This document shows, piece after piece, positions 25,212-26,420 of a stretch of 64,000 nt of DNA. The notes beneath the pieces were generated by a model. The model made no database searches and was not told the DNA's origin. It was given only the letters and a program-made list of their open reading frames with translations. How positions within the stretch are numbered: the stretch's first letter is position 1; each line of letters starts with the position of its first letter. The DNA lies in NCBI RefSeq assembly GCF_056746865.1, contig NZ_CM163382.1. One strand, 5' to 3'. The position numbers and the translations under genes are program-made.

Positions 25212-25318
25212 TACCTGTACCACCTATACCATTTTGCTAATTCAGTATTAAAAACAGTGCGTTACAGTGGTACAGGTCAATATCTTACCTATACCAGACC
25301 TGTACCACCTATACCATT
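25212..25318. repeat. iteron cluster 1 (ACCTGTACCACCTATACCATT twice direct, plus an inverted GGTACAGG copy)
   Basis: acctgtaccacctataccatt at 25212-25232 and 25298-25318; acagtggtacaggtc between them. Confidence 0.5.
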
Positions 25319-25338
25319 AACAAACGCATTTCTTCTGG

Positions 25339-25590
25339 TTGGCTGAGAGGGAACAACCAATGATGAGCACACCATTTTACAAAGTGCGCCAGTTAGCTTC
25401 TTCCTCTGGCTGGCAGCTACGGTTTGAGGGGCGTTCAGACTGGCTACCCATTGCGGCATGGGCGAATGTTGAAATGTGTATTGACGGCGATACCGTTGAA
25501 ATCATTATTCCCTGCGTGGCAAGTCGGGACGGCTGTATAGAGCCAACAGATATGGCAGCAGAAATCAGAGAGGTAAAACATGAACAATAA
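25339..25590 (+). CDS. hypothetical small protein (83 aa)
   Basis: ORF between the two iteron clusters. Confidence 0.45.
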   Translation: MAEREQPMMSTPFYKVRQLASSSGWQLRFEGRSDWLPIAAWANVEMCIDGDTVEIIIPCVASRDGCIEPTDMAAEIREVKHEQ

Positions 25591-26317
25591 CTATTGCATA
25601 CCGCAGGGAATGACCAGAACGGAGCGCGAAGAATTAAAAAGTTTCGCTACACAGTGCGGGAATGCTGGCGACATCCAAAGTCTGGAACGCACTTTAATTA
25701 TGATTGCGCACTGGATGCGCCAGGGGCAAAGGGTTTCATTTACTGAATATGCCAGCCAGTGGACAGAGGCACAGCGCGAACGGAGCGACGGTAATCACTC
25801 AACACCCGAAATGGCGAAGCAATGGCCTTTCAGTGGTAAACGCTGTATCAGTCCCGGTGGTTCAGATTATTACCCTGCTGGTGTGGGAGATGAGCCATGT
25901 TGTGACGAGACTGAAATCCGCCACGCAGTGACAGTAATTACCGCTGAATACCCACAATTTAACCTTGACGGACTGGCGCTCCACAACCGGAATGCGGACT
26001 GGGAAAACCCGCTTGATAACCCGTCATTTATCGTATCGGCGAAAAGCTGCCTGAGATGGATCAGAGACAACGGGATGAGTAATGCCCAGATTGAGAGCTT
26101 CCCGCAGGATAACCCCACATCTGACACGTTGAAGCATGAAGTGGAGCGATATAACCAGATAAACCACCAGCACAGTGATCACCCGCACTATATCCCCAAC
26201 GGAGCATTTATTGCGGCGATGGTGGCAAGCGGCTACAAGGTTAAACCAGCGGGAAGAATGAACGCATTTTTCAATATTTCAAAAAAGGGATTATGTGCTG
26301 CTATGGGTAAAAATTAA
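25580..26317 (+). CDS. hypothetical protein (245 aa)
   Basis: ORF overlapping the upstream stop. Confidence 0.55.
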   Translation: MNNNYCIPQGMTRTEREELKSFATQCGNAGDIQSLERTLIMIAHWMRQGQRVSFTEYASQWTEAQRERSDGNHSTPEMAKQWPFSGKRCISPGGSDYYPAGVGDEPCCDETEIRHAVTVITAEYPQFNLDGLALHNRNADWENPLDNPSFIVSAKSCLRWIRDNGMSNAQIESFPQDNPTSDTLKHEVERYNQINHQHSDHPHYIPNGAFIAAMVASGYKVKPAGRMNAFFNISKKGLCAAMGKN

Positions 26318-26320
26318 ATA

Positions 26321-26420
26321 AATGGTACAGGTCTGTACAGGTGGGTAGAGGTCATTTTTACCCACCTGTACCACCTGTAGGCCGCGCCACACAAGGGTTT
26401 GTGGCATGGTGGTACAGGTG
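26321..26420. repeat. iteron cluster 2 (GGTACAGGT / ACCTGTACC motifs in both orientations)
   Basis: ggtacaggtctgtacaggtgggta ... tacccacctgtaccacctgtagg ... tggtggtacaggtggtacagc. Confidence 0.5.

Follow-up and report, generated by a model that had tools for sequence, protein, structure and literature searches.

A probable split iteron origin 3′ of the primase-helicase gene in an EcCIMP1-like phage-inducible chromosomal island

The replication origin of the phage-inducible chromosomal island (PICI) EcCICFT073 has been tested experimentally: a pri-rep-ori segment drives plasmid replication and deletion of ori impairs it (Fillol-Salom et al., 2018, ISME J, PMC6092414). In the pathogenicity islands of Staphylococcus aureus (SaPIs) the origin consists of iterons that flank an AT-rich region just 3′ of pri-rep, with a specificity that fits the Rep helicase (Ubeda et al., 2007, as cited in PMC6092414). 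For EcCIMP1, a PICI for which experiments have demonstrated induction and transduction by the P22-like phage Kapi1, the published account places the att core at the island ends and describes neither an origin nor iterons (Pick, Stadel and Raivio, 2025, ISME J, PMC11773190). Here we analyse a stretch of 64 000 nucleotides (NCBI RefSeq assembly GCF_056746865.1, contig NZ_CM163382.1; referred to as the window) which carries what is most likely an EcCIMP1-like island, and within it two clusters of short repeats, M1 and M2, that follow the primase-helicase gene. On comparative grounds we consider it probable that M1 and M2 are the two halves of a single split iteron origin of the PICI/P4 type. As such it would belong to a known type of origin; what is new is the iteron and the C-terminal type of the helicase.

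An exact search of both strands of the window for the motif ACCTGTACC found seven copies, compared with 0.16 expected, and none of 100 shuffles of the window reached this number. Six of the seven lie inside two clusters of about 110 bp, within 25213–25306 and 26324–26419, where they start at 25213, 25269 (minus strand), 25298, 26324 (minus strand), 26364 and 26411 (minus strand); the seventh lies outside the clusters at 42607. When one mismatch is allowed the count rises to 22 (6.8 expected), with 11 of these matches within the two clusters. The first-pass annotation of this DNA, made by a model from the letters, had reported two motif clusters about 1 kb apart, with copies in both orientations, after the primase gene, and had proposed a count across the window; the count confirms the clustering. 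The iteron is 9 bp long, with the consensus ACCTRTACC and the core CTRTACC.

M1 (25206–25316, plus strand), which we delimit as an origin half from its iteron layout and by comparison with the origins of P4 and EcCICFT073, has its first iteron 30 nucleotides after the stop codon of the primase-helicase gene, the reading frame of which ends at 25183. Its iterons start at 25213, 25222, 25287, 25298 and 25307 on the plus strand and at 25269 on the minus strand. Read from its 5′ side, the module comprises a T-run, two direct iterons (ACCTGTACC at 25213–25221 and ACCTATACC at 25222–25230), a 38 bp spacer with 71% AT (25231–25268), one inverted iteron (25269–25277) and three direct iterons (25287–25295, 25298–25306 and 25307–25315). 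As in described PICI origins, two iteron sets (25213–25230 and 25269–25315) thus flank an AT-rich spacer, which is a candidate unwinding element. M2 (26318–26432, minus strand) lies about 1.05 kb away, beyond open reading frames (ORFs) of 76 and 245 amino acids. It has three minus-strand iterons (26324–26332, 26334–26342 and 26344–26352), a plus-strand iteron (26364–26372) followed by a degenerate one (ACCTGTAGG, 26373–26381), a GC-rich spacer with 38% AT (26382–26410) which carries the box CCGCGCCA, two further minus-strand iterons (26411–26419 and 26420–26428, the latter a weaker copy with the core CTGTACC) and an A-run. When M2 is reverse-complemented its iterons align with those of M1 position for position, while the spacers do not align, which indicates that a single module of about 110 bp is present twice, in inverted orientation. 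This relation, seen also in the outer cluster arms (23 nucleotides matching at 87%), was not part of the first-pass annotation.

Comparison of four E. coli copies shows that all four variable sites of M1 fall in the AT-rich spacer, with the iterons unchanged. In M2 the strong iterons are invariant; 26344–26352, 26373–26381 and one arm of a palindrome in the spacer (GCCACA-N8-TGTGGC, 26387–26406) vary. As single-stranded DNA M2 folds with a z score of −4.7, a value that we attribute to the inverted iterons. A related pattern, GCCA-N4-TGGC, is present in the M2 spacers of several relatives, but a conserved hairpin at this position was rejected because in the E. coli SEV1 copy the right arm is disrupted and no compensating change accompanies this. 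A scan of 24900–27200 gave no promoter-like, terminator-like or Rfam match inside either cluster, and a reading of the clusters as an RNA or a terminator was rejected on these grounds. Neither a DnaA box (up to one mismatch) nor an integration host factor (IHF) consensus was found in the clusters. There was no near match in the phage collection, the iteron string was met in the literature only in unrelated primers, and the supplements of Fillol-Salom et al. (2018) give no iteron sequences.

The arrangement nearest to that of the window is the bipartite origin of EcCICFT073. That origin also lies directly 3′ of its pri-rep gene, in a phage-inducible island which, like the island in the window, has int, alpA-like and perC genes. 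Its iterons follow the order of M1 and M2 taken together: (+,+), AT-rich spacer, (−), (+,+,+), (−,−), (+), the GC box CCGCGCCA...CTGG and (−,−). The iterons themselves differ, being CTGTCTACC in EcCICFT073 and ACCTRTACC in the window, and so do the proteins. The EcCICFT073 replicase has the domains D5_N, DUF5906 and Pox_D5 and no Toprim domain, a set which resembles the helicase part of P4 alpha, and it shows no BLASTP similarity to the replicase of the window. A further difference is that the two halves are contiguous in EcCICFT073, where function has been tested, whereas the putative halves in the window are 1.05 kb apart with two genes between them. The GC box, CCGCGCCA-N3-CTGG, is common to the M2 spacers of the window (26382–26409), EcCICFT073 (36186–36215 of locus record L030) and loci L008, L014, L015 and L018. 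To judge from these sequences it appears to be independent of iteron type, the helicases and iterons of EcCICFT073 and the window being unrelated; in many cases it can be read as the palindrome GCCA-N4-TGGC, and in E. coli SEV1 its conservation is incomplete. The first-pass annotation had compared the clusters with ori and crr, the cis-replication region, of phage P4. That analogy holds as far as the presence of two distant sites is concerned, but the EcCICFT073 origin is the closer parallel, and the clusters are contiguous in relatives.

The primase-helicase gene (22829–25183, plus strand) was identified from the ORF list, Pfam, a PHROG DNA primase match and the RefSeq annotation. It encodes 784 amino acids from a GTG at 22829, or 783 from 22832 in the RefSeq version, with the Pfam domains Zn_Ribbon_Prim, Toprim_3 and DUF5906, the last being the superfamily 3 (SF3) helicase. 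As in P4 alpha, a primase is fused to an SF3 helicase, and the N-terminal Zn-ribbon/Toprim primase of P4 alpha is homologous to that of the window protein (BLASTP, 33% identity over residues 8–338, E = 1e-40), Zn_Ribbon_Prim and Toprim_3 being detected by Pfam in the two proteins alike. The earlier label 'P4-alpha-like' is therefore apt for this part of the protein. It does not suit the helicase half, with which the iterons go: P4 alpha has D5_N and Pox_D5, the window protein has neither and the P-loop core of DUF5906 is all that the two helicase halves have in common. Against NCBIfam TIGR01613 (primase_Cterm) the window protein scores 20.4 bits, compared with a cut-off of 108.7.

The last 85 or so residues (approximately 700–784; 24926–25180, plus strand) are predicted to form a winged-helix DNA-binding domain, the model having a predicted local distance difference test (pLDDT) score of 87.5. 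In the alignment of homologues this region is conserved as AARSxxGKxMxxLG followed by GRxDRGxGxxYELP, and in the window the putative recognition helix reads PAARSLLGK, which includes Ser735 (S735), and is followed by the wing GRPDRGNGVFYELP. The best structural matches of the model are the winged helices of Cdt1, ORC/Cdc6, Fur and SarA, along with the C-terminal ends of other viral SF3 primase-helicases. The winged helix is likely to be the iteron-binding domain. We also considered kinship with the origin-binding domain of P4 alpha and rejected it: Pox_D5 is absent, there is no sequence match and the fold searches lead to generic winged helices. The PDB sequence search gave no match to P4 alpha, and the C-termini of the two proteins gave no BLASTP alignment.

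A scan of species-representative genomes with the alignment of homologues yielded 22 loci from Enterobacterales, Methylococcales and Alteromonadales. Clusters of CT[AG]TACC lie directly 3′ of the helicase stop codon in about 18 of the 22, including loci from Xenorhabdus, Pantoea, Buttiauxella, Arsenophonus, Proteus, Erwinia, Hafnia, Rahnella, Methylobacter/Methylomonas and Rheinheimera. The first-pass annotation had allowed that the motif might be equally frequent elsewhere; instead, the density of the six-nucleotide core is 9.9 per kb after the helicase genes compared with 0.61 per kb elsewhere (23 loci), a difference of about 16-fold. Many of these relatives share residues 350–784 or thereabouts only, with no Toprim domain, yet keep the iteron; the Hafnia protein, for example, consists of DUF5906 only. 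When M1 and M2 of the window are joined, they align over their full length with the region after the helicase gene in Hafnia, Rahnella and Buttiauxella (B. massiliensis), where the modules are contiguous. Because the clusters are contiguous in relatives, we interpret them as a single origin whose halves have been separated by inserted genes and not as an origin with a separately evolved enhancer. These comparisons support the earlier view that the repeats are origin-type iterons which would serve the adjacent primase-helicase, in a P4-like arrangement with another iteron sequence.

The spacing between the two modules varies widely. In Hafnia, Rahnella and B. massiliensis they are about 20 bp apart with nothing between them; in four Xenorhabdus species the distance is about 300 bp and a homologue of the 76-residue ORF intervenes; in the window it is 1.05 kb, with both ORFs. 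In X. ehlersii (locus L002) it is about 5 kb: the primase gene lies between modules at 2685–2790 and 7615–7744, an intact M1 is found 4.6 kb 5′ of the primase stop codon and the copy after the stop codon is degenerate. This spacing is like that of ori and crr in P4. The Citrobacter youngae locus (L019) has a single module at about 3180–3270, approximately 3 kb 5′ of the helicase stop codon, and the Erwinia locus (L013) has M1 only. Both module spacers are AT-rich in Xenorhabdus.

The base 5′ of the core CTGTACC is a C in loci where the predicted recognition helix reads AAR-S and a T or an A where it reads AAR-R, as it does in Xenorhabdus and two Buttiauxella loci. A neighbour-joining tree built on the last 400 residues does not place the two AAR-R groups as sisters, and in it Arsenophonus, with serine and C, is the sister of Xenorhabdus; this placement implies at least two correlated switches of base and residue. 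We regard this as suggestive of covariation between the recognition-helix residue and the flanking base.

Chromosomal islands of many E. coli strains match the region at 99.6% identity, and the repeat-flanked segment was found in 129 of 5,426 complete genomes. The island contains genes for an integrase (int, 14334–15677), an AntA/B antirepressor, Ash-like and Icd-like proteins, the primase-helicase and P22-type gp14-, gp7-, gp20- and gp16-like ejection proteins, together with perC. It has the int gene and alpA-type regulator of a PICI and no capsid or lysis genes, and it is collinear with EcCIMP1. The host element is most likely an EcCIMP1-like phage-inducible chromosomal island.

Comparison of the window with EcCIMP1 by blastn shows collinear stretches at 18382–23853 (94.6% identity) and 26515–33646 (98.7% identity). 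The 2.66 kb between them (23854–26514, plus strand) have no homology to EcCIMP1 and contain the helicase half from about residue 342, M1, the two small ORFs and M2. The left-hand break falls within the primase-helicase gene, at the boundary of the primase and helicase domains, and the right boundary lies about 85 bp past the last iteron of M2. In EcCIMP1 the corresponding segment (12233–14171 of its locus record, L025) encodes a DUF927 helicase half that is followed directly by three copies of GTTGGTTCA, an AT-rich spacer and three copies of TGAACCAAC. In their N-terminal primase parts the two proteins share 85% identity. With the primase shared and the module exchanged, the iteron type changes together with the helicase half. 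The Toprim-less relatives and EcCIMP1 form a double dissociation, and to judge from these sequences the iteron follows the half of the protein that comprises the helicase and the C-terminal winged helix, and not the primase half.

A second iteron set, of the EcCIMP1 (DUF927) type, occurs at 34525–34645 in the window, just 5′ of perC (34682–34969). It consists of three copies of GTTGGTTCA with 21 bp spacing (34525, 34546 and 34567), a 43 bp AT-rich spacer and three copies of TGAACCAAC with 9 bp spacing (34619, 34628 and 34637), and it shares a 9-mer with the repeats 3′ of the DUF927 primase-helicase gene of EcCIMP1. EcCIMP1 also has a distal copy of this set, inverted and 8.54 kb from the proximal set. 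No DUF927 helicase was found among the scanned ORFs of the window, and the set is seemingly an orphan left over from the replicase swap.

We infer the following course of events at the island. A helper phage would induce the island, which would excise as a circle. The island's own primase-helicase would bind the 9 bp iterons through its C-terminal winged helix, assemble on the direct and inverted sites, melt the 38 bp AT-rich spacer of M1 and load itself as the replicative SF3 helicase, with the N-terminal Toprim primase priming synthesis, all independently of DnaA. Ori and crr of P4 act together by protein-mediated DNA looping. Since two genes separate M1 from M2 by 1.05 kb, the two halves would have to act in the same manner, cooperating through a protein-mediated loop for the split origin to fire. 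In functional terms the split recreates the P4-like situation with two distant sites.

Several points weigh against a single split origin. Binding, unwinding and initiation at the clusters are predicted on comparative grounds, and the EcCIMP1 paper (PMC11773190) does not treat an origin. The predicted DNA-binding domain is a generic winged helix with no detectable kinship to the Pox_D5 domain of P4 alpha. The covariation rests on two switches, a simple neighbour-joining tree and few loci. The modules are degenerate, single or displaced in some relatives (L013, L019 and L002), which suggests that both halves may not be required. Finally, the 129 split copies in E. coli are 97.5–99.4% identical, so that their number is a poor guide to whether a working split origin is under selection.

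The most serious competing explanation is a P4-style split of roles, in which M1 alone is the origin and M2 is either an enhancer resembling crr or a site that titrates the helicase in copy-number control or handcuffing. We consider this possible, though not likely. By itself M1 has the full layout of P4 ori, it alone has an AT-rich spacer (71% compared with 38% AT in M2) and it is the only module of the Erwinia locus; within the family the distance between modules ranges between some 20 bp and some 5 kb, with 8.5 kb in EcCIMP1, as one would expect of a looping partner, and the placement of M2 relative to the 245-residue ORF differs between E. coli and Xenorhabdus. However, the contiguous and fixed layout of M1 and M2 in most relatives and in the tested EcCICFT073 origin argues for one unit, and in Xenorhabdus the difference between the spacers disappears, both being AT-rich. 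It is improbable that the repeats are mainly transcriptional operators through which a regulator, possibly the helicase, controls the two small ORFs or the downstream ejection-protein operon. Their positions would suit such a role, as M1 is intergenic and just 5′ of the 76-residue ORF and M2 is 5′ of the next operon, and initiators of iteron replicons often autoregulate via inverted repeats. Against this, the same modules follow helicase genes in loci that lack both ORFs (Hafnia, Rahnella and Methylomonas), neither cluster contains a sigma-70-like promoter, and in the exchange the repeats go with the helicase half, whereas the downstream operon is the one also found in EcCIMP1.

Two further explanations treat the clusters as ends or signals. 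Imperfect inverted repeats of about 110 bp, with outer arms of 23 nucleotides at 87%, do bracket a two-gene segment of 1 kb, as would be expected if a small mobile cassette with terminal inverted repeats had brought in the two ORFs; nevertheless we regard this as very improbable, since in relatives the repeats are adjacent with no cargo or bracket the 76-residue ORF alone, always beside the helicase gene, no transposase or recombinase is encoded inside and 9 bp iterons are unlike the end of a terminal repeat. That the clusters are a packaging signal (pac/cos) or recombination (att) sites of the island seems to us scarcely credible. They are satellite-specific cis sites close to packaging-related genes, but EcCIMP1, which is mobilized by Kapi1, lacks these repeats while sharing the rest of the island, its published att core is at the island ends and the repeats go with the helicase type. 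In our view two halves of one PICI/P4-type origin, brought together by looping, remain the most consistent interpretation of the data.

A more general proposal, which we put forward as speculative and rather unlikely, is that the PICI/P4-type origin is a two-module device which tolerates any spacing by looping. The gap would then accommodate genes for cargo or regulators, the 76-residue ORF being an example, modules left behind by replicase swaps would be active in trans and the GC box CCGCGCCA-N3-CTGG would be a common host-factor or priming site. If so, the orphan GTTGGTTCA set would let a co-resident EcCIMP1-type DUF927 replicase replicate the island, or would titrate that replicase, with cross-talk or incompatibility between satellites as the outcome.

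The two ORFs between the clusters, p76 (25360–25590, plus strand) and p245 (25580–26317, plus strand), have no match in Pfam, PHROGs, PADLOC or NCBIfam. The former encodes a conserved small protein, homologues of which occupy the same position in Pantoea and Xenorhabdus, and its structure model is weak (pLDDT 62.8) and too poor for a fold search. Homologues of p245, which lies inside the putative split origin in E. coli, fall into 29 clusters, all hypothetical; in Xenorhabdus the homologue is 3′ of M2, not 5′ of it as in E. coli (tblastn, loci L002 and L004). Both ORFs are absent from the Hafnia, Rahnella and Methylomonas loci that keep the iteron modules after the helicase gene. A terminator-like hairpin with a T-run (26801–26826, plus strand) lies 3′ of the replication module and outside the clusters, in a region common to EcCIMP1.

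Other features of the island and its surroundings may be noted. The integration module is unlike that of EcCIMP1: the integrase is a 447-residue P4-type enzyme with an Arm-binding domain, and the island adjoins yicC/rph/pyrE and ends before yicG (36703), whereas EcCIMP1 is located at thrW with a different integrase. We found no tRNA at the island junction in the window and no att-like direct repeat longer than 12 nucleotides at the island ends. The integrase gene is followed by an IS3-family insertion element (15858–17131) and then by an ORF of 322 residues with no family (17106–18074), with homology to EcCIMP1 beginning at 18382. The segment 27098–32266 encodes homologues of P22 ejection (injectosome) proteins, namely DUF2824 (gp14-like), gp7 and gp20 (Inj_translocase), and a 908-residue protein in the gp16 position with an SLT lytic transglycosylase domain. 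There are no capsid or terminase genes in the satellite, and the set of P22 ejection genes fits the published P22-like helper of EcCIMP1, Kapi1. Three repeats of about 10 bp (atacagtataccactgtataacactgttatac, 34440–34475) lie just 5′ of a minus-strand ORF of 151 residues with no family (33967–34422) and may be an operator. Farther along the window are tRNA-Sec (selC, 55407–55501), then transporter genes, and at 59984–63673 a type III secretion chaperone and translocator set comprising a TPR_3 chaperone, a 593-residue SipB/SseC-like protein and an ORF of 383 residues, which resembles the eip locus reported beside selC in certain strains of E. coli.

Islands of the EcCIMP1 type occur commonly in E. 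coli, in commensal as well as pathogenic strains, and their origin has hitherto been undescribed. The present analysis supplies a concrete cis site and points to winged-helix residue S735, in combination with the base 5′ of the iteron core, as the predicted determinant of specificity. The replicase half and the putative origin are also seen to move jointly as an exchangeable cassette. These results should be of use in the annotation of satellite origins and in the design of compatible or incompatible satellite-based vectors.

Comparison with P4, the ori and crr repeats of which were taken from the GenBank annotation of the P4 record, indicates a shared layout with different iterons. On the minus strand the type-1 repeats of P4 ori consist of a T-run, two direct copies of CTGTTCACC, a 35 bp AT-rich spacer, one inverted copy and three direct copies, which is the layout of M1; the neighbouring repeats have a similar spacing of 9–11 bp, and the M1 spacer is 38 bp long. 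The type-1 iteron of P4 is (C)TGTTCACC, which differs from ACCTRTACC. P4 also has two separated iteron places, and its crr lies directly 3′ of the alpha stop codon, as M1 follows the replicase gene of the window. However, crr consists of two direct repeats of 120 bp about 4.7 kb from ori, whereas the clusters of the window are inverted copies 1 kb apart and are contiguous in relatives. EcCIMP1 has the same backbone as the window outside the replication module (antA/B, ash, icd-like, P22-type ejection genes and perC) and likewise has two inverted iteron modules, but these are 8.54 kb apart, consist of GTTGGTTCA iterons and go with a DUF927 helicase half, and p76 and p245 are absent. The window is unlike iteron plasmids (Rep/pi/TrfA), which have direct repeats of about 17–22 bp, a Rep protein with two winged helices that recruits the host DnaB and, usually, DnaA boxes; its repeats are 9 bp long and lie in either orientation, the protein encoded next to them is an SF3 helicase-primase in its own right and there is no DnaA box. 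The SaPI origins resemble it in layout, although their hosts are Gram-positive and their sequences are unrelated, and we know of no SaPI origin that is split by genes. Taken together, one layout is found with three helicase types, that of P4 and EcCICFT073, the DUF5906 type described here and, more loosely, the DUF927 type, and the variable spacing of the halves within this shared layout provides a natural series for studying how self-loading SF3 primase-helicases recognize and open their origins.

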